A stretch of DNA of 64,000 nucleotides, from the IMG/VR virus record IMGVR_UViG_3300044733_004754; one strand, given 5' to 3'. Source of the DNA: a virus. The position numbers and the translations under genes were made by a program. The notes beneath the pieces are model-generated. The model was not told the DNA's origin. It saw nothing but the letters and a program-made list of their open reading frames with translations, and did no database searches. This document shows positions 39,855 through 64,000 of this stretch, in pieces (within the stretch, counting starts at the first letter, position 1; each line of letters starts with the position of its first letter).

Positions 39855-40246
39855 CTTGGCTCCTTAACGGAGCCGTTTTTGAAGAACCTTCTGAAAATGA
39901 TTATGGATTTGTATACAAAATAACAAACAATATTGATAGTAAAGTTTACATTGGTAAAAAGTTATTTTGGTTTAAGAAGACAAAGACATTAAAAGGCAAG
40001 AAAAAAAGATATTTGGCTCCTTCTGATTGGAAAACATATTTCGGTAGTTCTAAAGCAGTTCAAGAAGACGTTAAACGTCTTGGTGAAGATATGTTTACTC
40101 GTGAAATAATCCGTCTATGTAAGAATAAAGGTGAATGTTCATATTATGAAGCCAAATTTCAATTCGAACATAATGTTCTATACGAACCACAAAGGTATTA
40201 CAACGACTGGATTATATGTCGTGTGCATAGAAAACACATATTATGA
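39851..40246 (+). CDS. GIY-YIG endonuclease (T4 endonuclease II-like size)
   Basis: GFVYKITN..KVYIGKK, WKTYFGSS, YYN. Confidence 0.8.
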   Translation: MTWLLNGAVFEEPSENDYGFVYKITNNIDSKVYIGKKLFWFKKTKTLKGKKKRYLAPSDWKTYFGSSKAVQEDVKRLGEDMFTREIIRLCKNKGECSYYEAKFQFEHNVLYEPQRYYNDWIICRVHRKHIL

Positions 40247-41754
40247 ATAATTATGTTGATGTTGTAATATTTGAGGCTGCGTGGTCCTACATCACACAGA
40301 CTACTACCGATGTTCACCTTAATGAAAAGCACGGTGGCATTTCATTTAATGGTGACCGTACATCATATCCATCTCGTTTCCTTGGACCCTCCAAAATAGC
40401 ACAACGAATTCGCGAAGGTGGATATACTTGCCAAGTCATATCTTTTGTTCACTTCCTCAATCAAGATCAACTTGTAAGTATTATTAACAAGTTCGTTGGG
40501 CCTAGAACTATTATTGGTATTAGTTCAACTTTTGCCAATGGTAGAGGATGTAAAGCCATTGCTCATTTTATGCGCAATATCATTGGCCCAAAGATCACTA
40601 ACACAAACAAAACAATTATCGGTGGACCTTCGGCTCACATTTGGTCAAAGATTATTGAAAAAAACGGCTATCAGTTTGACCACGTTATAGTAAGTTTTGC
40701 TGAGAACAAAATCCTTCAAATCATTAATAACATTAAGAATTCGGGTCTCTTTAGAAAGATCACTGCACCTTGGGACATTCAAACCTGCCAGCATAGGTGG
40801 CATTCTTCATCTATTATTCAACGTAATGAGTCACTTCCGCTAGAGTGTGCAAGAGGATGTATCTTTGAGTGTAAGTTCTGTCGTTTTACTATGCTAGGTA
40901 AAAAGAAAGGCACATATGTACGGGACATCAATTTAATAAAAGACGAAATGTTGTATAACTATGATCATTTTGGTACAACAAACTATATGTTGACTGATGA
41001 TACCTTCAATGACACACCAGAGAAGGTTGAGGCCTGGGCGGATATGGTAAGTAGCCTACCTTTCAAAATCCAGTATGTGACATACTTGCGCGTGGACTTG
41101 ATACATCGCTTTCCACATACAGCCAAACTCCTGCAAGACTCGGGTCTGCTAGCCACGCATTTTGGTATAGAGTCCCTAACGCCGAAAGCGTCAACCCTCA
41201 TCGGCAAAGCATGGTCAGGTAAACATGCACGTGAGTATGTTCCTGAGCTTACTAAAAATGTATGGGGTGACAAAATAAATGTGTTCATATCTTTGATAGC
41301 AGGACTACCTCATGAAACACCAGACGATTGGCAAAGAGCAGGAGAATGGGCTGTTGAAAACAATCTTAGTGCCTATTATGCGACGTTAGGCATAGAAAAG
41401 TTCAGAAATAACTACAAAGGTATCTGGAATGAAGATGAACGTGAAGGTATAAGCTACTTCGATATTCATGCTGAAGAGTATGGATATCAATTCGTTACAC
41501 ATAAAGGTCGATCAATGTGGATCCTTGATGGAATGACCGAACACGATGTAGCAAGACGTGTTGCGCCGTTGAATGATTACTTCGACAAGCATTGTCGGGT
41601 CACTGCTTGGGGCACAATGGAGATGTTATCACTAGGTATTAATCAAAATTATATATTAAACAACCCTCGTAATGTTGTATATGGCAATACAACCTTCAAT
41701 ACTCTCCGTGATGATTTCGTAACAAATTACTTCCACGGACTGATGGAATTATAA
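40243..41754 (+). CDS. B12-binding-domain radical SAM protein
   Basis: GPSKIA, IGISS, GG; RGCIFECKFC; DDTFND; GIES. Confidence 0.88.
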   Translation: MNNYVDVVIFEAAWSYITQTTTDVHLNEKHGGISFNGDRTSYPSRFLGPSKIAQRIREGGYTCQVISFVHFLNQDQLVSIINKFVGPRTIIGISSTFANGRGCKAIAHFMRNIIGPKITNTNKTIIGGPSAHIWSKIIEKNGYQFDHVIVSFAENKILQIINNIKNSGLFRKITAPWDIQTCQHRWHSSSIIQRNESLPLECARGCIFECKFCRFTMLGKKKGTYVRDINLIKDEMLYNYDHFGTTNYMLTDDTFNDTPEKVEAWADMVSSLPFKIQYVTYLRVDLIHRFPHTAKLLQDSGLLATHFGIESLTPKASTLIGKAWSGKHAREYVPELTKNVWGDKINVFISLIAGLPHETPDDWQRAGEWAVENNLSAYYATLGIEKFRNNYKGIWNEDEREGISYFDIHAEEYGYQFVTHKGRSMWILDGMTEHDVARRVAPLNDYFDKHCRVTAWGTMEMLSLGINQNYILNNPRNVVYGNTTFNTLRDDFVTNYFHGLMEL

Positions 41755-43292
41755 TGGCTGTTGATTTTTTAATACTAGCTGCCGACTCCTCGATGGGTGG
41801 GGATTACCACGCTTCTTATAAAAAAGTTAAAGAAGACGTGAGAGCTATCAATGCTCATTTGTACGAACTTCACATCCACTTGGGAATGCGTGTCCTGGGC
41901 CCTTCAAAGATTGCGTGGATAGCACGCAAACATGGGTACACATCACAAGTGCTGTCAAAGCTCCAAATGCTCACCGCTCAGGAAATTTTGTCTCTCTGTG
42001 AAGGGTTCGTTAATGAGAAAACAATCATTGGTATCTCAACTAGCTTACTGGGGTATCCACATGGTGACTTCTCGACGCAATCATTTCACGACAGTAATTT
42101 ACAGGATGAGAGTGCAATACATAAACTTATTCATACCATTGATCACTTTAGAGAAAAGTACAAAACAAAGATTATAGTTGGTGGATCACAAGCTGTTGCA
42201 TTCCAAGATATTTTTGAAGCTGATTATATGCTTCAGGGCGAAGCGGAGAATACGTTACCACAGTTGCTTGATAAGATAAAAAGAAGTGGTATCCAAAAAC
42301 AACCATACGACTGGCAGATAACAACTTGTGATTTTAAATGGCACGACACTGATTGTATTGTTCCTAGAGAGCCAGTTCCATTAGAGACCTCAAGAGGATG
42401 CATCTTCAGATGTCGGTTCTGTCAATTTGCAAACATTGGTAAGAAGATAGGTACATTCGAACGACCTCTTGAAAATATTAAAGAAGAGATATGTAATAAT
42501 TATGAAAAGTATCAAACTACCCACTACTGGTTAGCTGACGATACTTTTAATGATAATGACGAACGCGTTAATCAATTTTGCGAGATGTTAGAGTCACTTC
42601 CCTTCAGAATTAATCTGATGGGTTACATTCGTCTTGATCTTGCTCATAGGTATCAAAAAACCACACAACGTCTTCTGAATGCTGGACTTGTTGGGTGCTC
42701 ATTTGGAATCGAATCCTTTCACCCCCAAGCAGCTAATGCTGTTGGTAAAGCGTTTAGTGCAAAGTATGCCAAGGAATTTCTCGATCACTTCTACTTTGAT
42801 ATGGCCAAAGAGAACGTGATGATTAATTGTTGCAACATTATTGGGTTACCTGGTGAAGGGATTAAAGACCTAGAAAAAACGTTAGATTGGTATTCAAAAC
42901 GAAGACATATACACATGAATTGGTCTGCTTTAACTCTATATGACCCCACTCGTTCAAAAAAAGAACAAGAGAAGAGTATTTTTGAGAAAGAGGCATCTAA
43001 GTATGGATATGTGTTTTTTGAAGACAAGCCGATAAACTATTGGGAAAGCCCAACAATGAATTGGGATATGGCTGTGACTATACGTAATCGTATAACTCGT
43101 AAAATGAAAAATCACAATATTGAAGCCGGTGAGCCTTGGCTAAACATGCATTATTTGAGTATACTAGGCATTACGCCGAAAGAAGCAAGAGCCAGATATC
43201 AGAACTGGGAGAAATTGTATTTGCAAGAGACAAGAAAGATCATTGACCATAACAGTCAATACTTTAACTTTATTAAATGGAAGTACACATGA
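41754..43292 (+). CDS. B12-binding-domain radical SAM protein (paralog)
   Basis: GPSKIA, GEAE, RGCIFRCRFC, DDTFND, GIES. Confidence 0.88.
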   Translation: MAVDFLILAADSSMGGDYHASYKKVKEDVRAINAHLYELHIHLGMRVLGPSKIAWIARKHGYTSQVLSKLQMLTAQEILSLCEGFVNEKTIIGISTSLLGYPHGDFSTQSFHDSNLQDESAIHKLIHTIDHFREKYKTKIIVGGSQAVAFQDIFEADYMLQGEAENTLPQLLDKIKRSGIQKQPYDWQITTCDFKWHDTDCIVPREPVPLETSRGCIFRCRFCQFANIGKKIGTFERPLENIKEEICNNYEKYQTTHYWLADDTFNDNDERVNQFCEMLESLPFRINLMGYIRLDLAHRYQKTTQRLLNAGLVGCSFGIESFHPQAANAVGKAFSAKYAKEFLDHFYFDMAKENVMINCCNIIGLPGEGIKDLEKTLDWYSKRRHIHMNWSALTLYDPTRSKKEQEKSIFEKEASKYGYVFFEDKPINYWESPTMNWDMAVTIRNRITRKMKNHNIEAGEPWLNMHYLSILGITPKEARARYQNWEKLYLQETRKIIDHNSQYFNFIKWKYT

Positions 43293-53433: not shown

Positions 53434-54096
53434 ATGAGTAATACGATTGTGTTTAACAAGGCAAATGCAATGTGGGTTGCAGTATTGTCGTCTATTTTGA
53501 TTATGACGATGACTGTCGCTGATTTTGCTGCTGTCAAGTTTCTTGATTTTGGTTTTGTGGTAACGCCGGCTGGTGCATTATTGTTTGCTGTAGTATTTGT
53601 TGTGCGAGACATGTTGCACAAGATGGCTGGTAGGGAGTTTGTTACAAAGATTATTCTTTATGGAGTAGTAATTAATCTTGCTGTAGCGGTGTTCATGTAT
53701 GCTATGACGTTCCTGCCATCTCCATCGTTCAGGCCTAGTGTTAATTTTGATGCAATGTTCAAGATGTCGTTGGGTATTGTTATTGGGTCTGAGATTGCAA
53801 CGATGATTTCGCAGTATGTGAACACATGGATTTATCAATGGATGTGGGAAAGGGATCATGGTTCGTGGTTGAGGACGTTTGTTTCCAATCTATTGAGTCT
53901 GCCGGTGGATGCATTTTTCTTTGTAGTTATTGCATTTGTATTGATGCCTCCGTTGCTTGGTGGTAATGCAATGGATTTTAATGCAGCAATTGCAAGGATT
54001 GTATCTGGTAGTACATTATTCAAGCTAGCAATTATTCTAGCGTTGACGCCTCTTGTATCGTTGGCGCCTACGAATGAGGATGCAAAGCACGGATAG
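53434..54096 (+). CDS. yhhQ: queuosine-precursor transporter (VUT/YhhQ family)
   Basis: About 6 TM; PAG.LLFAVVFVVRD, SQYVN, R..VSN..S.PVD. Confidence 0.8.
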   Translation: MSNTIVFNKANAMWVAVLSSILIMTMTVADFAAVKFLDFGFVVTPAGALLFAVVFVVRDMLHKMAGREFVTKIILYGVVINLAVAVFMYAMTFLPSPSFRPSVNFDAMFKMSLGIVIGSEIATMISQYVNTWIYQWMWERDHGSWLRTFVSNLLSLPVDAFFFVVIAFVLMPPLLGGNAMDFNAAIARIVSGSTLFKLAIILALTPLVSLAPTNEDAKHG

Positions 54097-54161
54097 AGTG
54101 TAGTGTGCAAGCCCTTACAATTAATTGAGGGTTTGCCAATATATTCTAGGAAGGAGTTTAT

Positions 54162-54686
54162 ATGAGTCAGAGGCCATTAAAATTTATTAGTAGAGAGAAA
54201 GAGTCAGAATTAATTAATAAATTATTGACAATTGTTGATAATAGGGATATTCATCCGCATCACACTGCATTAATTATGGCTTCGCCAGATTATTCTGCTA
54301 CTGTGGCAATGCATTTATCGCATGCATGGAGTGTAAGGGGTGAAATAATTCCAATTATTCCTGTAGATGTAACGTATCCCGATGAGAAGCCAGATTATTA
54401 TGAGATGAAGATGGAGCATCAATTAATGTGGTTAAGGGATAGGACTGTGATGCCAAGGAATATTGTGATGGTAGAGGCAGGGATTATCAGGGGTGGTAAT
54501 TGGGCATGGATGTTAGAAGTATTATATAAGTTTGGGTATACCAGAGATGATATCACTTTGGTTACATTACTGGAGAATGTACATTCAAGGGTTAAGTCTG
54601 ATTATGTTGGTGAGTATTATGATGATGAGAAAGAGGACTTAGTGTTCTATTATGAGAGGTTCAATAAGCATTGGCCGGTAAGATGA
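54162..54686 (+). CDS. phosphoribosyltransferase-like protein
   Basis: IVMVEAGIIRGGNW resembles PRPP loop; C-terminal LVFYYE. Confidence 0.6.
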   Translation: MSQRPLKFISREKESELINKLLTIVDNRDIHPHHTALIMASPDYSATVAMHLSHAWSVRGEIIPIIPVDVTYPDEKPDYYEMKMEHQLMWLRDRTVMPRNIVMVEAGIIRGGNWAWMLEVLYKFGYTRDDITLVTLLENVHSRVKSDYVGEYYDDEKEDLVFYYERFNKHWPVR

Positions 54687-55336
54687 ATAATGTAATTCAA
54701 GAAGATGTCTGGTACACTAAGCGTATTGATTTAAAGTTTGATGGTAAGAGGTTAGCAAAGGATGCGTTAGAGATATTTGATAGGTGGTCTCTCAAGACTC
54801 CGATGGATCTTTTTGAGTTTGCTCAGCTTACTGCCAAGCATAAAAATGCGTCATTAATTGATCAGTATAGGCATAGGAATGTGGTATGTTTAAAGAAGAG
54901 GGTTGGTGATTCGCCAGAAGAAGCGTTAATGGATTTATCTGGGTCTGGGTTACCTGTGACAAAGCGTGATGAGAGTCATGGTGAGGACAAGTATATTGAA
55001 TACAATCCTTTATTTGATGGATATTATATTATGGAGTGTGTAAAGGAGATAGAGAGGTTTGTGAGGGAGAAGTATAATGTTGTTGTGGGTAAGGCAAGGT
55101 TATTGAGGTTAGAGAAGAGGACATGCTATCCTTTGCATAAAGATTATAATCAAATGAGGGTGCATGTGCCTATTATTACCAATGAAGGATGTTTCTTTGT
55201 AATGAAGGGTAAGGTTGAAGGTATGTCAGAGGTAGGAAGGGCCTATTTGTTTAATAATAATGTGAGACATACTGCTGTGAATGCATCGCAAGACGATAGA
55301 ATTCATCTTGTTATTAATTGCGAAGGTACGATATGA
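54683..55336 (+). CDS. Asp/Asn beta-hydroxylase-like 2OG-Fe(II) oxygenase
   Basis: HKD, RVHVPIITN, HTAVN..RIHLV. Confidence 0.8.
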   Translation: MNNVIQEDVWYTKRIDLKFDGKRLAKDALEIFDRWSLKTPMDLFEFAQLTAKHKNASLIDQYRHRNVVCLKKRVGDSPEEALMDLSGSGLPVTKRDESHGEDKYIEYNPLFDGYYIMECVKEIERFVREKYNVVVGKARLLRLEKRTCYPLHKDYNQMRVHVPIITNEGCFFVMKGKVEGMSEVGRAYLFNNNVRHTAVNASQDDRIHLVINCEGTI

Positions 55337-55975: not shown

Positions 55976-56270
55976 TATTATTTTACGTAGTGTAGTGCAA
56001 TCACAAAATAATTAATTTTCTACTAGTTGTGCGGAGTTACGTTACCTAAGCCTAGTAGCATAATAGAGTTTCAACGGAGTTTCCTGCATTGTAGGATGAG
56101 ATATTTTACATAGTAGGAAATACGTTTAAATACGGGATCCGGTGAGGTATTCCGAATGGTGCTGCGGGTATCAGATCACACACCAGTTCCCCTGCAGAAG
56201 TCAACAAAGACCAGCCAATCATTTCCCACATTGTAGGAAATCATTTCCCGTATCGTAGGAAACTCCCGCT

Positions 56271-56390
56271 CCCCTGCGAGCCCCTGCGAGCCCCTGCGAG
56301 CCCCTGCGAGCCCCTGCGAGCCCCTGCGAGCCCCTGCGAGCCCCTGCGAGCCCCTGCGAGCCCCTGCGAGCCCCTGCGAGCCCCTGCGAG
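56271..56390. repeat. perfect tandem repeat (CCCCTGCGAG)12
   Basis: Direct reading. Confidence 0.98.
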
Positions 56391-56541
56391 TGCAGCAGCC
56401 CCCTGCAATAGTCTGAGTGCATCTGGTCTCCCTGCTGATGCATTGAACGAATCGGTGATTGTGATACTAATTTGCAGACCAAGTCAACAGAGACCAGGTC
56501 AACAGTAAGCTCATTCTGCAGCTCGCTGAAAGACCATACTG

Positions 56542-56571
56542 TTGACAAGCTCATGCAAAGTATGGGATAAT
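56542..56571 (+). promoter_or_regulatory. sigma70-type promoter without a convincing downstream ORF
   Basis: TTGACA-18-GATAAT with TG extension. Confidence 0.5.
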
Positions 56572-56719
56572 GAGTGGGGGACCGTTTGCGCGGAGTTGGC
56601 AGAGGTGCGCTCTCGCCGTCCATCCCCAGAGTGCCTGTTCGAACGCATAGAGACATCATCTATGAAAAAAGAGACCAAGACAACAGACCACATATTCTAC
56701 ATTGTAGGAAATAAAAATG

Positions 56720-56774
56720 TTGACTTCTGTTTTGGTCTATGAGACAGTGGCCATGTCGTTAAACAAAAGGACTA
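56720..56774 (+). promoter_or_regulatory. cassette element P1
   Basis: TTGACT-tctgtttTGGTCTatga-GACAGT-GGCC...TTAAACAAAAGGA. Confidence 0.75.
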
Positions 56775-56909
56775 ATGATGAAGGCAATCTACAAAGGGAC
56801 GGAGTACTACATAATCTCTGTGCTCGGCGAATTGATCGAGATCGCCCCTACCAAACACGGTGCAGGGTCGTTCCTTGCGCATAAAGACTTTATCACCATT
56901 GTGGAGTAA
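56775..56909 (+). CDS. small early protein (44 aa)
   Basis: MMKAIYKGTEYYII...; follows P1 RBS; not in ORF track. Confidence 0.6.
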   Translation: MMKAIYKGTEYYIISVLGELIEIAPTKHGAGSFLAHKDFITIVE

Positions 56910-56911
56910 CC

Positions 56912-57085
56912 ATGAAGCGAAGCGCTATCAAGACTGGCATTTGGGGCGGCTTTGCCGCATGGGTAGGAGTGCAGACATACAGGCTGATCACGGCTGTTGT
57001 CTTGTTCATCCAATTGGTGTTCGGACTCTCTCTTGGTCTTGCATCGCTCTGGATTGCCGTACACTACAATCTAATACCCAACTGA
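56912..57085 (+). CDS. small membrane protein (57 aa)
   Basis: GGAG RBS; MKRSAIKTGIWGGFAAW...; stop abuts P2. Confidence 0.6.
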   Translation: MKRSAIKTGIWGGFAAWVGVQTYRLITAVVLFIQLVFGLSLGLASLWIAVHYNLIPN

Positions 57086-57086
57086 G

Positions 57087-57142
57087 TTGACCTGATATTT
57101 GGTCTGTGCTATACTGACTTCACTGTTCAAATGGAGTTCCAA
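57087..57142 (+). promoter_or_regulatory. cassette element P2
   Basis: TTGACC-17-TATACT, TGGTCT in spacer. Confidence 0.85.
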
Positions 57143-57514
57143 ATGAAAGTGTTCGTGTACTTCAACTTGCACAAGAAGTGCTGGTCTGTCAAAGCTCTCG
57201 AGGGTCCCCGCAAGGGCCGTGTGGTCCAGCATGCGAAGACTATCGCACTGCATAACGTCACATTCAAGGTGTCCGAGGCTGGACGTCAACGAGTGCTGCG
57301 GGAGAAGAAGAAGAATGTGCATGCAGGAGCTGTTGGCACGCTGGATGTGTACTCATATGAGCCCTGGTTGGGATTGCAGGGTTCTGTTCACGATCTCACC
57401 AAGGTATCGTACAATCCCTATAAGGCAGGACACTTCGTTAACAAAGAGACGAATGAGCCTGTCCACACCGCGCAGTATGCGTATCTCGTTGACAAATCCG
57501 TAATGGTGAAATAA
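57143..57514 (+). CDS. conserved phage protein
   Basis: VYFNLHKKCWSV, VSEAGRQRVLREKKKNVHA, YNPYK. Confidence 0.8.
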   Translation: MKVFVYFNLHKKCWSVKALEGPRKGRVVQHAKTIALHNVTFKVSEAGRQRVLREKKKNVHAGAVGTLDVYSYEPWLGLQGSVHDLTKVSYNPYKAGHFVNKETNEPVHTAQYAYLVDKSVMVK

Positions 57515-57922
57515 ATGTTCGATTCCACTCGCTTCGCAAGCTACAACGACTACAACGACTATCTCACCCGCAAGCTCGCTCATTACAATGAGTGGCTGGG
57601 CGATCCCAAGCGGACGTTCAAGAATGGTCCCTACCCAGGGTTCCCGGAGGACCTCGAGCACGCAGCTCGCATCCAGTCCTTCAAGAAGGCAGCTGCTCAG
57701 GAGTTCGAGAAGAAGGCGAACCCTCCCATTGAGCGCAAGAAGAAGTCAAAGAAGGCAAAGAAGACAGCCGATGGTGGCCCTACCAAGCAAGAGCGTGCTG
57801 TTGACATTTTCAAGCGTTTGAGTGGGGAGAAGGCTGCGACCATTCAAGCAATCCAGGATGAGCTTGGTATGTCGCTCGCTGGTGCCACCACATACTTCTA
57901 CAATGCAAAGAAGTTGGTCTGA
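57515..57922 (+). CDS. Lys-rich protein with C-terminal HTH-like domain
   Basis: TKQERA...IQAIQDELGMSLAGATTYFYNAKK. Confidence 0.75.
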   Translation: MFDSTRFASYNDYNDYLTRKLAHYNEWLGDPKRTFKNGPYPGFPEDLEHAARIQSFKKAAAQEFEKKANPPIERKKKSKKAKKTADGGPTKQERAVDIFKRLSGEKAATIQAIQDELGMSLAGATTYFYNAKKLV

Positions 57923-57923
57923 G

Positions 57924-57978
57924 TTGACCTAAGGTCTGGTCTGTTGTAATATGGCCAGACCTTAACAAGGAGATAGAG
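57924..57978 (+). promoter_or_regulatory. cassette element P3 (12-bp hairpin)
   Basis: TTGACC-17-TAATAT; TAAGGTCTGGTC/GGCCAGACCTTA. Confidence 0.88.
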
Positions 57979-58284
57979 ATGTCAGTTCAAATCAAATCTG
58001 TTATTCGTCCTACTCAACTCGTTCGCAATGTAATGTACAAACATGGAAACGCTCTTGTGTTCACTAATAAGTATCCCACCTGTAGGACTGTCAAGTGTTA
58101 TTTTGATCCCAAAGTAGGTGCAGAGGAACTCAAATCAGACATCACAACAGTTCTACAAACAGCAGGTGTACAAGAGTTCAAAATCAAAACTCTAAAGTAC
58201 ACGGATCCATTTCTCTTGGGTCGTATGTGTCACACTTTTCATTCTCTCATTGTAAGAATCCCTTTCTCGGAACAAGCTCAATAA
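57979..58284 (+). CDS. hypothetical early protein
   Basis: AAGGAG RBS; FTNKY..RTVKCY. Confidence 0.75.
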   Translation: MSVQIKSVIRPTQLVRNVMYKHGNALVFTNKYPTCRTVKCYFDPKVGAEELKSDITTVLQTAGVQEFKIKTLKYTDPFLLGRMCHTFHSLIVRIPFSEQAQ

Positions 58285-58292
58285 ACAAATAG

Positions 58293-58347
58293 TTGACCTA
58301 AGGTCTGGTCTATAGTAATATGGCCAGACCTTATCAAGGAGATAGAG
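58293..58347 (+). promoter_or_regulatory. cassette element P4 (near-identical to P3)
   Basis: 58/61 nt identical to P3. Confidence 0.88.
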
Positions 58348-58575
58348 ATGTACGTTCAAGTCTACATTCCTACTGTGATTCTCGAGATGGTTGAAGAGGC
58401 CTTTGAAGGGCTCTTTGGCCGCAGGCCAACCACAAAGGAGCTGCGGGACTTCTTCGCAGCAGACGTAGCAACACTGTACGATCAAGGCATTCACGAAGCT
58501 CCTACAAACGAGCTCGAGGACTCCCTGCACCACTTCTTCTATCACCAATTCAACACTCCTCCGGAGGCTGCATAA
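58348..58575 (+). CDS. hypothetical early protein
   Basis: AAGGAG RBS. Confidence 0.7.
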   Translation: MYVQVYIPTVILEMVEEAFEGLFGRRPTTKELRDFFAADVATLYDQGIHEAPTNELEDSLHHFFYHQFNTPPEAA

Positions 58576-58712
58576 TGAGCTGGGCACGCAAGATGGCTGA
58601 CAAGCGGAAGATCAATCGTGTATTGGTCCGCTGCAAGAATGTCCGACACAATGACAAGCGTACTAAGGTCATGGAGCGTGAGCTCCGCAAAGAAGAGCGA
58701 GGTGTAGCATGA
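58575..58712 (+). CDS. small basic protein (45 aa)
   Basis: TAATG coupling; MSWARKMADKRK... Confidence 0.55.
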   Translation: MSWARKMADKRKINRVLVRCKNVRHNDKRTKVMERELRKEERGVA

Positions 58713-58870
58713 GCCGTGCGAAAGAACTCCTGGAAGACATCAAAGAAGACATCCGTGATGGGTTCCTCTCTGACAAAGCCATCGCACGGAAGTATGATGT
58801 GCCTATTGAGTGGGTGTACATTGCGTGGGACCAGCTCTGTCAAGAAGAACATAATCGTGAGTTGACCTGA
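58709..58870 (+). CDS. small HTH protein (53 aa)
   Basis: GAGGT RBS; LSDKAIARKYDVPIEWVY; reads through P5 -35. Confidence 0.65.
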   Translation: MSRAKELLEDIKEDIRDGFLSDKAIARKYDVPIEWVYIAWDQLCQEEHNRELT

Positions 58871-58918
58871 TACCTGGTCTATAGTATGATGGCCTCACGT
58901 TAAACAAAGGAGTTAGTG
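58862..58918 (+). promoter_or_regulatory. cassette element P5
   Basis: TTGACC-17-TATGAT-GGCCTCACGTTAAACAAAGGAG. Confidence 0.88.
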
Positions 58919-59149
58919 ATGAGCCAAGCACAGTTCTTCTACGAAGTCGATCGGGAGCAAGCAGAGATAGAAGATGTCAACGCCGAGCTGCATATCCTTG
59001 CAGACGAAGTGCAGCAGGAAGTAATCGAAGAGCAGTTCCGTCGGTTCCTGCAGGAAGTATTCGGAGCTCTCTACGAGGAGATCGATCTGGGTTGTGAGTT
59101 CGACCTCATCCAGGATATGGAAGCTGGTTGGGATCTTCATAAGGCCTGA
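58916..59149 (+). CDS. highly acidic small protein
   Basis: D/E-rich 77 aa. Confidence 0.7.
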   Translation: MMSQAQFFYEVDREQAEIEDVNAELHILADEVQQEVIEEQFRRFLQEVFGALYEEIDLGCEFDLIQDMEAGWDLHKA

Positions 59150-59150
59150 G

Positions 59151-59207
59151 TTGACCAAAGGGCTGGTCTCAAGTAGGCTGGCCCTACTTTAACAGACGGA
59201 GAACGAA
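59151..59207 (+). promoter_or_regulatory. cassette element P6 (11-bp hairpin)
   Basis: TTGACC-17-TAGGCT; AGGGCTGGTCT/AGGCTGGCCCT with G-T pairs. Confidence 0.8.
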
Positions 59208-59396
59208 ATGGACAAAGATTTATTCCGCAAAGATCCCAGAGACTTTGCATTGGGTCTTGTAAACAACGGGCTTATCTCTGCAGAGAGTTTGCTCACTGCG
59301 GCACTGGTGTACATGAGCACTGATGAGGTGCGTGATATGCTGGACAGCAACGAACTCAGCCCACGCTTCTCAGAAGATGATGAAGTTGAAGTTTAA
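59208..59396 (+). CDS. hypothetical early protein
   Basis: YMSTDEVRDMLDSNEL. Confidence 0.7.
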   Translation: MDKDLFRKDPRDFALGLVNNGLISAESLLTAALVYMSTDEVRDMLDSNELSPRFSEDDEVEV

Positions 59397-59402
59397 CAGG
59401 AG

Positions 59403-59810
59403 ATGGTAATGAAAGCTGGAACGTACTACATTGGTGACCTCTGCTATGTGTTCAACATGGACGACTGGAATGATGTGTGCAACATCACGATGGATGGACG
59501 CGAGGGTGAGTTTGAGCTGCCAGATGGTCGCAAGTTCGCACTCTACAACACTGCATATGGTGACGGAGAGTACAACGACCAGTTTGGCAACAAATACCCT
59601 GTCGACTCTGGCACCATCGGATGTGTGTTGTGGAAAGACACTTCTCGCTATGAGTACATCCTTACTGATGTGGGTGCTGTTGTTGACATGAAAGAGGATT
59701 TCGATACCTGCTCGGATGGGAACGGTCTCATCAAAATTGGCAGTACGACCATCGATACTGCTGAGGAATGGCTCGATCAGTACGATGAAGAGAATGAAGA
59801 ATGGAGTTGA
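59403..59810 (+). CDS. conserved phage protein
   Basis: YYIGDLCYV, TAYGDGEY, VDSGTIG. Confidence 0.75.
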   Translation: MVMKAGTYYIGDLCYVFNMDDWNDVCNITMDGREGEFELPDGRKFALYNTAYGDGEYNDQFGNKYPVDSGTIGCVLWKDTSRYEYILTDVGAVVDMKEDFDTCSDGNGLIKIGSTTIDTAEEWLDQYDEENEEWS

Positions 59811-59867
59811 CCTGAAATCTGGTCTGTGCTATAGTGGCCTCACGTTAATCAATTAAAGGAGTTTCAA
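59807..59867 (+). promoter_or_regulatory. cassette element P7
   Basis: TTGACC-17-TATAGT; upstream TGA lies inside the -35. Confidence 0.88.
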
Positions 59868-60176
59868 ATGAACCAAGTCTTCTCAATGCTCACCCAGTCC
59901 CTCATCGATGGCAAAGATGCTGCTGCTGCAGCGGTTGCTCCTGCAAAGAAGAAAGCTGTCCGGGCTAAGCCTGCAGCGAAGAAGGATCTTGCAGAGCAGG
60001 TGGTCGAAGTAGTAAAGCTAAAGGCTCGTCCAGGTACGAAGGCTGATCTCGCCCTGGAGATCGTGCAGAAGGCTGCTAGCCGCAAAGAAGCGATCGCTGA
60101 GATCATGGATGTGTGTGGTATGACGGTGCAGGGAGCAACGACGTACTACTACAATGCAAAGAAGAAGCTGGCCTAA
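59868..60176 (+). CDS. Ala/Lys-rich protein with C-terminal HTH-like domain
   Basis: TKADLA...IAEIMDVCGMTVQGATTYYYNAKK; paralog of 57515. Confidence 0.75.
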   Translation: MNQVFSMLTQSLIDGKDAAAAAVAPAKKKAVRAKPAAKKDLAEQVVEVVKLKARPGTKADLALEIVQKAASRKEAIAEIMDVCGMTVQGATTYYYNAKKKLA

Positions 60177-60177
60177 G

Positions 60178-60235
60178 TTGACAACAAGGCTGGCCTGTTG
60201 TAGGCTGGCCTTTCATTCATCATAAGGAGTATACC
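60178..60235 (+). promoter_or_regulatory. cassette element P8 (11-bp hairpin)
   Basis: TTGACA-17-TAGGCT; AAGGCTGGCCT/AGGCTGGCCTT. Confidence 0.8.
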
Positions 60236-60538
60236 ATGTTCGCAATGCCTAACACTCGTCAAGTTCGTCAAATTATTCGTGATGCAGCCCGTGATGTCGG
60301 TGTCACGTTTGAGCGTCATTCGTGGACAGACAAAGTGGATGTTGAGAATCCGAAGCTGCGTCAGGTCTGCTTGAGTCCTCTCTATCTGGGACCTGAGCCT
60401 CACAGCAAGTATGACGAGCTGATCAACATCATCCGCAATCGTCTTGCTCAACACAACCTCCTCATCATTCAAGGGTTGTCTGATCATCTCTATGTTCGGT
60501 TCTATGGCGAGATCGCCCCTCGCAAAAAGAAGGCCTGA
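60236..60538 (+). CDS. hypothetical early protein
   Basis: AAGGAG RBS; WTDK...RQV. Confidence 0.7.
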   Translation: MFAMPNTRQVRQIIRDAARDVGVTFERHSWTDKVDVENPKLRQVCLSPLYLGPEPHSKYDELINIIRNRLAQHNLLIIQGLSDHLYVRFYGEIAPRKKKA

Positions 60539-60544
60539 CCTGAG

Positions 60545-60601
60545 TTGACCGTGAGGCTGGTCTATGGTATACTGGCCTCACGTTAAACAAAGGAGTTAGT
60601 G
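60545..60601 (+). promoter_or_regulatory. cassette element P9 (12-bp hairpin)
   Basis: TTGACC-17-TATACT; CGTGAGGCTGGT/ACTGGCCTCACG. Confidence 0.9.
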
Positions 60602-60799
60602 ATGTACATCAACCTTCAGCCGAGCAAGACCTACAAGACCCGCGAGAACGCCATCAAGGCAGCGATGACGCAGGTCTGCAGCAAGCGTGACGATCTCCGG
60701 TTCATCATCAGCATCACGGAAGACGGTCGCTTCTTCCCAGTGTTCCTCGGTGTCAATGCTCTGCCGGTGATCCACATCGGATTCTGCGTAGCAGCCTAA
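60599..60799 (+). CDS. hypothetical early protein
   Basis: KTYKTRENAIKA, DGRFFPVFLG. Confidence 0.75.
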   Translation: MMYINLQPSKTYKTRENAIKAAMTQVCSKRDDLRFIISITEDGRFFPVFLGVNALPVIHIGFCVAA

Positions 60800-60802
60800 G
60801 AG

Positions 60803-60859
60803 TTGACGAGGCCAGTGTTCTGAGGGATACTGGCCTCACTGTTAAACAAGGAGCTAATA
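60803..60859 (+). promoter_or_regulatory. cassette element P10 (13-bp hairpin)
   Basis: TTGACG-17-GATACT; GAGGCCAGTGTTC-TGAG-GGATACTGGCCTC. Confidence 0.85.
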
Positions 60860-61099
60860 ATGAGTGCAAACGAGATCAAAGTCTACGGCATGTCGGTCGA
60901 GCGCATCCAGGAAGAGTATGTCAACAGCATCACGGCTCAGTGCTGCGGCCTGGAGATGGTCGTAGCTGGCATCCTGAGCGATGTGCAAGAGGTTGTGTCG
61001 TTTGACCATGTCAGGCCCGAGCAAATCCGTCAGCAGCTGAACATCGCTAAGTACCTCCTTACGCTGCTGGCTCGGCAGCGTCGTGAGCAGGTAGCATGA
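60860..61099 (+). CDS. hypothetical early protein
   Basis: ILSDVQE...IRQQLNIAKY. Confidence 0.75.
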   Translation: MSANEIKVYGMSVERIQEEYVNSITAQCCGLEMVVAGILSDVQEVVSFDHVRPEQIRQQLNIAKYLLTLLARQRREQVA

Positions 61100-61281
61100 A
61101 GTACTCAGAGATGTCCTTCGTCGCCTTCCTGCAGGCGGCGGAGGATTACGCAGAAGCAGAGGGAGCGCTGGCGGAGTTCACGACTGCGTACCAGTACTAC
61201 AGGGTGTACTGCAGTGTAAAGGACAGCACACTGCTTGCCCTCAATGATGTGTTCGGCAGAGAATGTCCTCTCATTCATTAA
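61096..61281 (+). CDS. hypothetical protein
   Basis: ATGA overlap. Confidence 0.6.
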   Translation: MKYSEMSFVAFLQAAEDYAEAEGALAEFTTAYQYYRVYCSVKDSTLLALNDVFGRECPLIH

Positions 61282-61291
61282 GGAGTTCAAC

Positions 61292-61654
61292 ATGAGTACT
61301 CGTTCATTCATCGGCATGGCTAAGAGCAATGGCGAACTGATCGGCAACTACTGTCACTATGATGGCTATCCCGAGCACGTCGGTGTGGCGCTTGTTACGT
61401 ACTACAGCACCGCTGAGCATGCCATCGCTCTGATCGGTGGTCCGCGGATCCGCTGCATTGGGCCCGACGGCGAAGTCGAGCGCTTCAAGGACAGCGATAT
61501 TGGCACGGAGACATTTGAGAGTGTGAATGAGGTACTCAACAGCGGCTACGATTACTGCTACCTCTTCTCTAAGGAGGAGCAGCGCTGGACGTGTTTCGGT
61601 CGGGATTATGGCCCCTACGCATCCATCATCGTCTCCAAAGAGATCCCGGGTTGA
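61292..61654 (+). CDS. conserved phage protein
   Basis: AAGGAG RBS; MSTRSFIG...YCHYDGYP..VG. Confidence 0.75.
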   Translation: MSTRSFIGMAKSNGELIGNYCHYDGYPEHVGVALVTYYSTAEHAIALIGGPRIRCIGPDGEVERFKDSDIGTETFESVNEVLNSGYDYCYLFSKEEQRWTCFGRDYGPYASIIVSKEIPG

Positions 61655-61708
61655 CCTGTTACCTGGTCTAGGGGATACTCTCCCTACTGTCAAATAAAGG
61701 AGCTGATC
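61651..61708 (+). promoter_or_regulatory. cassette element P11
   Basis: TTGACC-17-GATACT; upstream TGA inside the -35. Confidence 0.8.
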
Positions 61709-61924
61709 ATGCAACAACAGAGCTGGGTGAAAGATGGCGAGCGTATCCGTGGGAACTATCATGGGAATGTTGTGGAGGGTGTTGTGCATGACAGCCGAGT
61801 AAAGTACGGCGGCATGGTACAGTACAGAGTCATGCTTGACAACACTGTTCGCCTGCCATGGCGCTCTGAGCCAGTCAGCGTAGTCTTGCTGGACGAGAGC
61901 GAAGTGCTCCCCAGCGAAGTCTGA
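61709..61924 (+). CDS. small SH3-like beta protein
   Basis: G.Y....VEGVV.DSRVKYGG.VQY.V.LD. Confidence 0.7.
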   Translation: MQQQSWVKDGERIRGNYHGNVVEGVVHDSRVKYGGMVQYRVMLDNTVRLPWRSEPVSVVLLDESEVLPSEV

Positions 61925-62110
61925 GTGCTCGCAGGGGCCCCTGCGGCCCCCTGCAGAGTCGTACTGCTCCCCTGCATACCGCCGGGGGCCCGCCTTTTTT
62001 AACGCGCAGGTACCCGTACCCGGGTTCCAGTACTTGGCCGTGTGTTCTCAAAGGGGCCCCCGCCTTGTTTTATCCGAATCTGAAAAAAGTCGTCTCAAAA
62101 AATTTTTTTG
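61918..62110. repeat. GC-rich right border with CCCCTGC motifs and palindromes
   Basis: CTCGCAGGGG 61928-37, palindrome CGCAGGGGCCCCTGCG 61930-45, GGGGCCC(CC)GCCTT twice, A6T7 tract. Confidence 0.75.
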
Positions 62111-62140: not shown

Positions 62141-62794
62141 ATGATCTGGGCTATCCGAATTACATTCTTCTTATTGGCGCCTCTTATCCTCTATTGGCAG
62201 TATAGAGACGTGCAGAATCTTTTTGCGAGTGTAGAGGCACTCTATGAGAATCAGATTGTTATCGTACAGGGACAGTTAGCGATTACATCAGATATCAAGG
62301 AGTTGCGAGCAGAAGTATTGCAGCAACCAGTGCCGTCAGTGCCATCGGCGCCTGCACCTAGTATTAAGCCTCCTTTGCAAGTGATCCGTACAGATTATCA
62401 ATTGAAGCATGACCCGCTTGACATCTTCTGTATGGCAAAGAACATATATCATGAAGCTGCACATGAGCCTGAGATCGGTCGCTATGCAGTTGCGCAGGTA
62501 ACACTTAACCGCAAAATGAATCCTAAGTATCCAAAGAAGATTTGTGATGTGATCCTGGATCCATATCAGTTTAGTTGGGCAAACGATAAGAAGATTCGCT
62601 GGACTAATCCTAAAGGTCCTGCATGGGAGGAATCCAAGCGTATTGCATATAATGTAGTAGTAGAGGGGTATAGAGTGAAAGGACTAGAGCATGGCCTCTT
62701 CTATCATGCAGATTATGTCAGTCCTAAATGGCGCGATAACAATGCTCATATCACTCAGATCGGTAGACATATCTTCTATAGCCGGGCACTTTAA
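62141..62794 (+). CDS. cell wall hydrolase (SleB/Hydrolase_2)
   Basis: N-terminal TM; CMAKNIYHEA, AVAQVTLNR, YQFSW, FYHADYV.P.W, HIFY. Confidence 0.9.
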   Translation: MIWAIRITFFLLAPLILYWQYRDVQNLFASVEALYENQIVIVQGQLAITSDIKELRAEVLQQPVPSVPSAPAPSIKPPLQVIRTDYQLKHDPLDIFCMAKNIYHEAAHEPEIGRYAVAQVTLNRKMNPKYPKKICDVILDPYQFSWANDKKIRWTNPKGPAWEESKRIAYNVVVEGYRVKGLEHGLFYHADYVSPKWRDNNAHITQIGRHIFYSRAL

Positions 62795-64000
62795 TGAGAC
62801 CAAACATACTTTGGTATTGTACAGACCAACAGCGATGGGATACGATCAGTGCTCTAGGTCAAAAACATATCACCACCCCTATGCTGGACGAACTGTGTAG
62901 GGGTGGTGTTGCATTTGAAAGAGCATATACAGTAAGCCCAACATGCACTCCTTCACGCGCTAGCTTCTTGACTGGACGCTATCCAGCCTCACATCACGTC
63001 TACCGGAATGGGAATTCATACTTCCCTGCACACGAAAAATTAGTAACACGTATCCTTGCTGACGCTGGTTATGATTGCGGCCTTGTTGGTAAACTACACC
63101 TCTCTTCTGGTCGCAATGGCGAAAGACGTGTTGACGATGGATATAGAGTATTCCATTGGAGTTTGAATACACGCACAGAATATGGAAGAGGCGCATATGG
63201 CGATTGGCTGAAGGAAAAAGGAATTGATCCTACTACCCTCTATGCATCACAGAAACAATTCTGCGCTCCGGGTGTTCCTGCTGCCCTCCACCAAACAACA
63301 TGGGCAAGCGATATGGCGATTCGCTTCATTACAGAAAAACGCAACAGCCCTTGGATGCTGTCTGTTAATCCTTTTGACCCACACGTCCCATTTGACGCTC
63401 CACCCGAATACTTAACGCGCGTAGATAAGAACTCTCTCCCTCTACCCCTGTTTAGGAAAGAAGACATTGAACGACAACAAGCATTCACTCACATTGACCA
63501 ACAAAGCAAAAAAGCAACAGACCACACACTACCACAGACAGACAATACACGCTCATGGCCACCAGAAGCATATGATGCACGTGAAGTGAAGGCTCACTAC
63601 TATGCAATGATTATGCTGATCGATGACCAACTACGACGCATTGTTGATACACTCAGAGAGACCGGCCAACTAGAAAATACTTTGATTATATTCATGAGCG
63701 ACCATGGCGACCTACTTGGCGACCACGGACTGATCCTAAAAGGATGCCGCTTCTTTGACGGACTCGTAAGAGTACCAATGATCTTCTACTGGCAAGGAGT
63801 ACTACAACAAAACCTTCGCTCACAAGCATTGGTTGAAACAATCGACATTGCACCTACCATACTTGATATAGCTGGAATCCCTATCCCATACGACATGCAA
63901 GGCAAATCGCTCCTACCACTCATGTGCGGTGAAAAGGATCCCCATACCCATAAACGATTCGTCACATGCGAATATAAGGATTCCATGGGCGGCCCACAAT
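62794..64000 (+). CDS. formylglycine-dependent sulfatase (3' truncated by window)
   Basis: MRPNIL..TDQQR, CTPSRASFLTGRY, GKLH, DPHVPF, SDHG; open to window end, absent from ORF track. Confidence 0.92.
   Translation, partial: MRPNILWYCTDQQRWDTISALGQKHITTPMLDELCRGGVAFERAYTVSPTCTPSRASFLTGRYPASHHVYRNGNSYFPAHEKLVTRILADAGYDCGLVGKLHLSSGRNGERRVDDGYRVFHWSLNTRTEYGRGAYGDWLKEKGIDPTTLYASQKQFCAPGVPAALHQTTWASDMAIRFITEKRNSPWMLSVNPFDPHVPFDAPPEYLTRVDKNSLPLPLFRKEDIERQQAFTHIDQQSKKATDHTLPQTDNTRSWPPEAYDAREVKAHYYAMIMLIDDQLRRIVDTLRETGQLENTLIIFMSDHGDLLGDHGLILKGCRFFDGLVRVPMIFYWQGVLQQNLRSQALVETIDIAPTILDIAGIPIPYDMQGKSLLPLMCGEKDPHTHKRFVTCEYKDSMGGPQ

Follow-up and report, generated by a model that had tools for sequence, protein, structure and literature searches.

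Early promoters of phage T4 depend on the host sigma70 factor, have an extended consensus, and many of them are found closely spaced on the same strand before small non-essential early genes. Their -35 region is GTTTAC-like and is accompanied by an A-rich upstream element, and there is no conserved hairpin across the -10 region. Another kind of element, the promoter-early stem-loop (PeSL), was reported in RB49/phi1 (Arbiol et al. 2010, PMC2839356) and in T4/PST and KVP40/nt-1 (Comeau et al. 2014, PMC4122927). A PeSL consists of the upstream stop codon, an AT-rich tract, sigma70-type boxes, a stem-loop, a Shine-Dalgarno (SD) sequence and the ATG; the stem-loop is located mostly between the boxes or over the -10 and is drawn with G-T pairs (PMC2839356, PMC4122927). 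These elements cluster in hyperplastic regions beside ORFans and indels, their crossovers are found either in the loop or in the stretch from the -10 to the SD, and degraded 'half' elements occur in the published sets (PMC2839356, PMC4122927). Experiments demonstrated strong promoter activity, terminator activity of one stem-loop (from RB49), and mini-circles (PMC2839356, PMC4122927). Here, we describe an array of eleven promoter elements, probably of this type, that divides an island of 18 small genes in the viral DNA of IMG/VR record IMGVR_UViG_3300044733_004754. The whole stretch analyzed, 64,000 nucleotides (nt), is referred to as the window.

Anatomy of the repeated elements

The window was searched for the pattern GTTGAC-N8-TGGYCT with one mismatch allowed, and the chance level was obtained from dinucleotide shuffles. 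Eleven matches were found, all of them on the + strand and within positions 56719-61669, while the shuffles gave a mean of 0.55 and a maximum of 3. Every copy includes a TTGACC-like -35 region (TTGACC/TTGACN), a 17-nt spacer, and a -10 hexamer of the form TAnnnT or GAnnnT, which is usually followed by GGCC, a TTAAAC-like box, AGGAG, and an ATG located 45-55 nt past the -35. An earlier note, made from the letters of this DNA, had described eleven elements with the arrangement GTTGAC(C)-17 bp-[T/G]AnnnT; the number, the spacer and the -10 were confirmed, and so were the positions, except that each coordinate was one base high, counted from the T of TTGAC. Its counts for the two additional boxes were reproduced: the sequence TGGTCT is exact in nine of the eleven spacers (element 8 has TGGCCT and element 10 has TGTTCT) and GGCC is directly 3' of the -10 in nine (the exceptions are elements 2 and 11). 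Also confirmed was the statement that most elements begin at the upstream stop codon or overlap it (9/11); in elements 7 and 11 the TGA within the -35 sequence TTGACC is itself that stop codon. An element of about 60 nt fills the gap between genes and contains the upstream stop codon, the promoter, the ribosome site and the start codon. An AT-rich upstream tract of 10 nt is present only at elements 1 and 4, and the others abut or overlap coding sequence. All eleven elements have, by their sequence, the sigma70-like promoter of a PeSL, with boxes about 17 nt apart.

Comparable promoters are scarce elsewhere, with only about three in the remaining 56 kb of the window. An additional good promoter, P0 (56542-56571, + strand; TTGACA, 18 nt, GATAAT, with a TG), lies upstream of the array, lacks the TGGTCT and GGCC boxes, and is kept in two of the relatives described below, R and D. 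The leader that follows it (56572-56665) does not fold better than its shuffles (z +0.58).

A hairpin in each element had been claimed by the earlier note. This was borne out for six of the eleven, where a strong hairpin is predicted (dG -17 to -23 kcal/mol, z -2.5 to -6.7): element 3 (57923-57981), element 4 (58292-58350), element 6 (59150-59210), element 8 (60177-60238, with two G-U pairs), element 9 (60544-60604) and element 10 (60802-60862), which has the strongest one. It was not borne out for the remaining five. Element 1 (56719-56777) has a weak 5-bp stem and a backbone-type -35 region (TGTTGACTTCT), element 2 (57086-57145) has no strong hairpin, and element 11 (61650-61711) can form a short alternative stem only. 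Two others look composite: element 5 (58861-58921), also without a hairpin, is a chimera with a left half like those of elements 2, 7 and 11 and a right part of 30 nt equal to that of element 9, and element 7 (59806-59870) includes the 3' arm of element 9 without the matching 5' arm. Elements 3 and 4 are 92% identical over 72 nt.

The strong stems occur in three registers, with position sums of 50 (element 3, around the -10), 46 (element 6) and 43 (element 10) when counted from the G of GTTGAC. In all three registers the 3' arm is anchored on the GGCC that follows the -10, and the -10 hexamer is located in the loop or at its edge. Covariation is observed directly: among 34 elements from three phages, paired positions such as 10-36, 11-35, 18-28 and 9-41 alternate between AT, GC and GT yet stay paired. 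The stems include G-U pairs and no A-C pairs, and in 11 of 12 strong hairpins the fold of the + strand is more stable than that of the - strand by 4-7 kcal/mol. Because G-U pairs without A-C pairs stabilize the + strand over the - strand, these predictions point to a structure formed at the RNA level or by the top strand, not to a cruciform.

Cassettes in related phages

Five metagenomic relatives were informative. Three of them are close to the window: R (IMG/VR contig UViG_3300010370_000030, loci L027, L017 and L046) shares about 95% identity with it, V (L164 and L165) about 96%, and L163, which comes from an independent sample, 99.8%. D (L156, 8.9 kb) encodes proteins 32-92% identical to those of the window, and X (L157) is more distant. 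The variants come from the samples JGI 3300010370 and 3300042321, ENA ERZ9869195, ERZ27275020 and ERZ27275033, and SRA SRR13827123, SRR13827125, SRR5216639 and SRR11430613. The genes of the island in the window are designated g1 to g18.

In R, all eleven elements recur in unchanged order, and a twelfth comes after the hydrolase gene that follows the island. R lacks g10 (59208-59396, 62 amino acids (aa), with its own ribosome site), and the difference corresponds to a segment of 204 bp (59196-59399, + strand) bounded at both ends by 8-bp direct repeats, TTTAACAG, which are the conserved box of the element. L163 confirms the g10 junction. The gene is missing from this position in D and is present in two other relatives. 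At a finer scale, the window and R share 97-100% identity in the left halves of the elements, but have 4-7 differences in the 10-nt segment with the loop and -10 in each of elements 6, 7 and 8 (5/10 in the loop of element 6). The loop of element 7 is like that of element 2 in the window and like that of element 9 in R. Element 8 has lost its -10 in R, where it combines a perfect stem with a 5-nt loop that is exactly the reverse complement of that in the window. V keeps g10 and lacks g15, so that the tail of element 10 runs directly into g16; in addition, the core of element 9 was swapped for one of the element 10 type, with the tail of element 9 and g14 retained.

D contains eleven elements of the same family and two new cassettes, lacks g17, and has g8, a g1-like gene and a g18-like gene at other locations. 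The order is g2 / g3 g4 / g5 / new / g6, g10-like, g7 / g9 / g11 g8 / g12 / g13 / g14 / g18-like, new / g15, g1-like, g16, then the hydrolase and sulfatase genes. The 40-nt core of element 4 is 100% identical to that of D3, an element of D, and precedes g6 in the window and one of the new genes in D. The core of element 9 is 100% identical to those of two elements of D; it precedes g14 in both genomes and also g6 in D. A core of the element 3/4 type with a compensated stem is found before g11 in D. Copies of one element subtype flank three cassettes: g5 in the window, d15-d16 in D (element 10 type), and g5 in X, where the two flanking elements are near-identical. X has homologues of g5 and g9 and a g6-like gene in still another order, and its elements belong to a different sequence family with the same architecture, including a -10 in the loop of a long hairpin; one of its stem-loops has a loop that is exactly the -10 hexamer. 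Other lineages (L158-L162) have in the same genomic slot their own repeated promoter families, some of them with stem-loops; in L160 some of the stems enclose the -35 instead.

The alignments show cores and genes visibly re-assorted between relatives. The idea that the array 'expresses and shuffles' its genes is supported by these comparisons on an evolutionary scale. Relatives were checked for identical cassette order and content, the outcome that the earlier note had named as contradicting such shuffling, and it was not observed because D, V and R differ from the window. Exact-pattern scans of IMG/VR and the JGI metagenomes detected the family only in one 81.8-kb contig and its fragment, and other single matches were at the level of chance. 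A search for related loci with g11 recovered only R; with g17 it recovered 80 loci, none of them with the element family except R. The sequence family appears, then, to be restricted to this lineage.

The window encodes a DNA polymerase of the T4 gp43 type (phrog_262), with a best identity of 46%, to cyanomyoviruses. Since a gp41-type helicase, NrdA and PhoH are also encoded, the window is, on its gene content, a distant T4-like phage of an uncultured lineage, and the island sits in a hyperplastic region of its genome. Two radical-SAM proteins of about 500 aa are encoded as well; the two genes for them (40243-43292), adjacent to each other, are in the phage backbone and have no PHROG match. 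When the island was used in a DNA search of cultured phages (INPHARED), no relative was found, and the sole match was of 185 nt of g3 to mycobacteriophage L5 gp82-family genes.

The analogy with PeSLs of T4-like phages drawn by the earlier note agrees with the published descriptions. As in PeSLs, there is a stop codon, sigma70-type boxes with a 17-nt spacer, an SD and an ATG, and in six of the eleven elements also a strong stem-loop over or between the boxes with G-T pairs. The elements form dense same-strand arrays amid ORFans in a hyperplastic region, and close relatives differ by insertions, deletions and replacements with crossovers that map to the loop and to the interval from -10 to SD. 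On the other hand, the sequences form an unrelated family, which was detected in no other lineage, and the elements add TGGTCT in the spacer, GGCC after the -10 and the TTAAAC box. GGCC anchors their stems, which use three registers; the GC content of the island exceeds that of its genome by 10 points, and the phage has only 46% gp43 identity to cultured T4-like phages. Taken together, the elements fit all the features of a PeSL that can be read in DNA except the AT-rich tract, and fit the stem-loop in part, as it is strong in 6/11. What seems new is the sequence family, specific to this lineage, of an element type published in 2010 and 2014; the novelty implied by the earlier note was too high. 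T4 early promoters are similar in that strong promoters are crowded on one strand and conserved beyond the two hexamers; they differ from the present elements, which have a TTGACC-like -35 and, in six cases, a hairpin across the -10.

Genes and flanks of the island

The 'about 18 small genes' of the earlier note correspond to 18 open reading frames (ORFs), all on the + strand, of which 17 are shared with R and none is broken. The 17 shared ORFs accumulated 99 synonymous and 54 non-synonymous codon changes with respect to R, and are therefore coding. Element 1 would drive g1 (44 aa) and g2 (57 aa, hydrophobic), which occupy 56775-57085. Element 2 is followed by g3, a member of the Phage_L5_gp82 family with a likely start at 57143, and g4 (135 aa), at 57131-57922. 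Next, g5 (101 aa, 57979-58284) is located between the near-identical elements 3 and 4, and the translationally coupled g6, g7 and g8 (75, 45 and 53 aa) occupy 58348-58870. Element 5 precedes g9 (76 aa, 58919-59149). After element 6 and g10 comes g11 (133 aa, phrog_20074, 59409-59810), with homologues in T4-like phages of Stenotrophomonas, Acidovorax and Acinetobacter. Elements 7, 8 and 9 precede one gene each, g12 (102 aa, 59868-60176), g13 (100 aa, 60236-60538) and g14 (65 aa, 60602-60799). Element 10 is followed by g15, g16 and g17 (phrog_1987) at 60860-61654, and element 11 by g18 (71 aa, 61709-61924). Terminator-like GC-rich hairpins followed by T runs (61925-62070, + strand) close the island.

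No Pfam family was found for 17 of the 18 proteins, the exception being g3 with the uncharacterised Phage_L5_gp82, and only three match PHROGs, each a family of unknown function. Searches of PDB sequences with g4, g11 and g17 found no relatives, and Rfam and tRNA scans of the window gave no matches. By these searches the island genes are almost exclusively ORFans, and the description of them as host-takeover or anti-defence genes was a guess by analogy. The proteins g4 (57515-57922) and g12 share a paralogous C-terminal domain of 44 aa (48% identity) located after a Lys/Ala-rich linker; they resemble small DNA-binding proteins and match no family. The small gene g10, putatively early and of unknown function, is unusually conserved and mobile, with more than 100 homologue clusters in metagenomes (55-98% identity) under promoter families that differ between phage lineages. 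The homologue in L162 has the same ribosome-site spacer as g10 of the window, which suggests that g10 moves together with its SD.

The island is GC-richer than the rest of the window, as the earlier note had indicated: 48-56% compared with about 40%. The GC content at third codon positions (GC3) is 0.49-0.79 in the island and 0.20-0.47 in the rest, the exception being g5, with a backbone-like value of 0.33. A different bias is seen further upstream, at 53434-55336 (+ strand), where the genes for a Vut_1 transporter, a 174-aa ORF and one hydroxylase are nearly devoid of C at third codon positions (C3 0.05-0.06 versus G3 0.31-0.34), and the GC skew reaches +0.48. R has a segment of about 700 nt (L046, 1140-1860) with a minus-strand ORF that is nearly G-free on the + strand, with a GC skew of -0.56.

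Genes for two 2OG-type hydroxylases are found immediately 5' of the island, and genes for a SleB-like cell-wall hydrolase and a sulfatase immediately 3'. The sulfatase gene (62794-64000), whose ATG overlaps the stop codon of the hydrolase gene, is kept in the divergent D (482 aa) and is missing from the entire 81.8-kb contig of R, where its place is taken by a 74-aa ORF and the twelfth element. The island is preceded by a non-coding block of 830 bp in which four copies of a dyad-like sequence, CAT(T/A)GTAGGAAA, are found at 56087-56711. This sequence has six matches in the window versus 1.3 expected, only a few bases separate the end of its last copy from the -35 of element 1, and it is conserved in R and D; it may be an operator. 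Twelve perfect tandem copies of the 10-mer CCCCTGCGAG occupy 56271-56390; there are about 2.5 copies in D, and in R the region is replaced. Another motif upstream of the island, CCGTTTACCTA, is not enriched in the window. The sequence CCCCTGC occurs in the window only at the ends of the island, with 14 copies at 56189-56400 and three at 61938-61969, within the closing region, and the same bracketing is found in D. An 11-bp direct repeat at 56410 and 61918 (chance expectation about 0.025) was considered as a target-site duplication and rejected, as it is not conserved in D.

Possible roles of the elements

It is likely that the elements are a lineage-specific family of the PeSL type, composed of early promoters recognized by host sigma70 that give short early transcripts, with stem-loops that act on read-through RNA from upstream and with a repetition that makes them preferred sites of homologous exchange or conversion. 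Once the DNA is injected, transcription by the host polymerase would begin at all 12 promoters and yield short transcripts of 1-3 genes. The stem-loop, present in the read-through RNA coming from the unit upstream, would attenuate transcription or protect the 3' end. Since the same 40-70 nt recur in one orientation, every 260-850 bp, they could be used as crossover or conversion sites by phage homologous recombination, perhaps with circular intermediates. Because the elements themselves would serve as exchange sites, genes could enter, leave or change partners and would still always have a promoter and a ribosome site. The overlap between -10 and stem may have a simple reason, the packing of five signals into about 60 nt.

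Several observations weigh against this proposal. Elements 1, 2, 5, 7 and 11 have stems of 4-6 bp at most, and most copies lack the AT-rich upstream region of PeSLs. A U tract was not seen after the stems, except partly at element 8, and for this reason they cannot be counted as canonical intrinsic terminators. Except for one gene, R has its genes in exactly the order of the window. Other changes took place at gene-gene or SD-ATG junctions and not between two elements, namely the g10-like gene between g6 and g7 and the g1-like gene between g15 and g16 in D, and the deletion of g15 in V; therefore, part of the plasticity appears to be ordinary illegitimate or microhomology recombination. Finally, the promoter and terminator activities are proposed by analogy, from the consensus and the experiments with RB49.

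The conserved order in R, together with the rearrangements located away from elements, would also be expected if these were no more than strong early promoters in many copies, whose extended consensus is lineage-specific and maintained by selection, and the rearrangements were due to unrelated illegitimate recombination. That other lineages have in the same hyperplastic slot their own extended consensus is in agreement with this explanation. Nonetheless, we regard it as unlikely. Selection on a promoter does not account well for 40-nt cores that are 100% identical beside genes whose proteins are 56-92% identical, or for the same gene preceded by different core variants in different phages. Elements with chimeric halves, a core swapped at 96% genome identity, and cassettes flanked by duplicates of one subtype argue for exchange at the elements as well.

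In three unrelated sequence families the -10 is located in the loop or at its edge, which raises another alternative, that the stem-loop works on the promoter at the DNA level and is not an RNA terminator. Extrusion by supercoiling could expose the non-template strand of the -10, or a phage or host regulator could recognize an operator at TGGTCT/GGCC, and TGGTCT is conserved in stem or loop and even in elements that have no hairpin. This is rather improbable: the cruciform is disfavored because G-T wobbles confined to the top strand imply A-C mismatches in the bottom strand, the overlap is already accounted for by how tightly stop codon, promoter and SD are fitted into about 60 nt, and a stem-loop of RB49 was shown to terminate transcription. 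In a broader form, the hairpin would be a functional single-strand structure, and not a terminator forced there by lack of space, and could act as a supercoil-sensitive device that presents the non-template -10 to host sigma70 on freshly injected DNA, or as a structure-specific crossover site. This has some appeal because hairpins with the -10 in the loop recur in at least three unrelated families of the clade and pair in the top strand only, and we give it a similarly small chance. With such a crossover site, cassette exchange would involve more than homologous recombination alone.

The difference in GC3 between island and backbone and the confinement of CCCCTGC and the 11-bp direct repeat to its two ends could mean that the GC-rich island as a whole is mobile and was inserted as a block in a region of CCCCTGC repeats, with elements native to the donor. 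We consider this quite doubtful. The same flanks are found in the divergent D and therefore any insertion would be old, the chance expectation of the 11-bp repeat is not negligible, and element 1 has a -35 context of the backbone type. As for an integron-like site-specific system, with the hairpins as attC-like single-strand sites of an unrecognized recombinase, it shares with integron cassettes a gene array split by imperfect hairpin-forming repeats with top-strand-specific folding, and is nevertheless very improbable, since the elements have their own promoters, five of them cannot fold, no IntI-type tyrosine recombinase with attI/attC sites or other recombinase was found in the island or its flanks, and the crossovers are scattered over the loop, the end of the 3' arm and the SD region, as homologous exchange predicts. 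The term 'integron-like' used in the earlier note was thus an overstatement, given the lack of attC-type sites and integrase and the several rearrangements at gene-gene junctions.

As a PeSL-type family, the elements do not reveal a new kind of system. They extend one previously reported from cultured T4-like phages that infect enterobacteria and vibrios, three pairs in all, to a distant uncultured lineage. The five metagenomic variants, in which genes were gained or lost, cores swapped, one loop inverted and identical cores placed before different genes, constitute unusually clear natural evidence and a compact natural series for testing where crossovers are placed. They support the view that repeated promoter cassettes may be a general route of accessory-gene turnover in T4-like phages.

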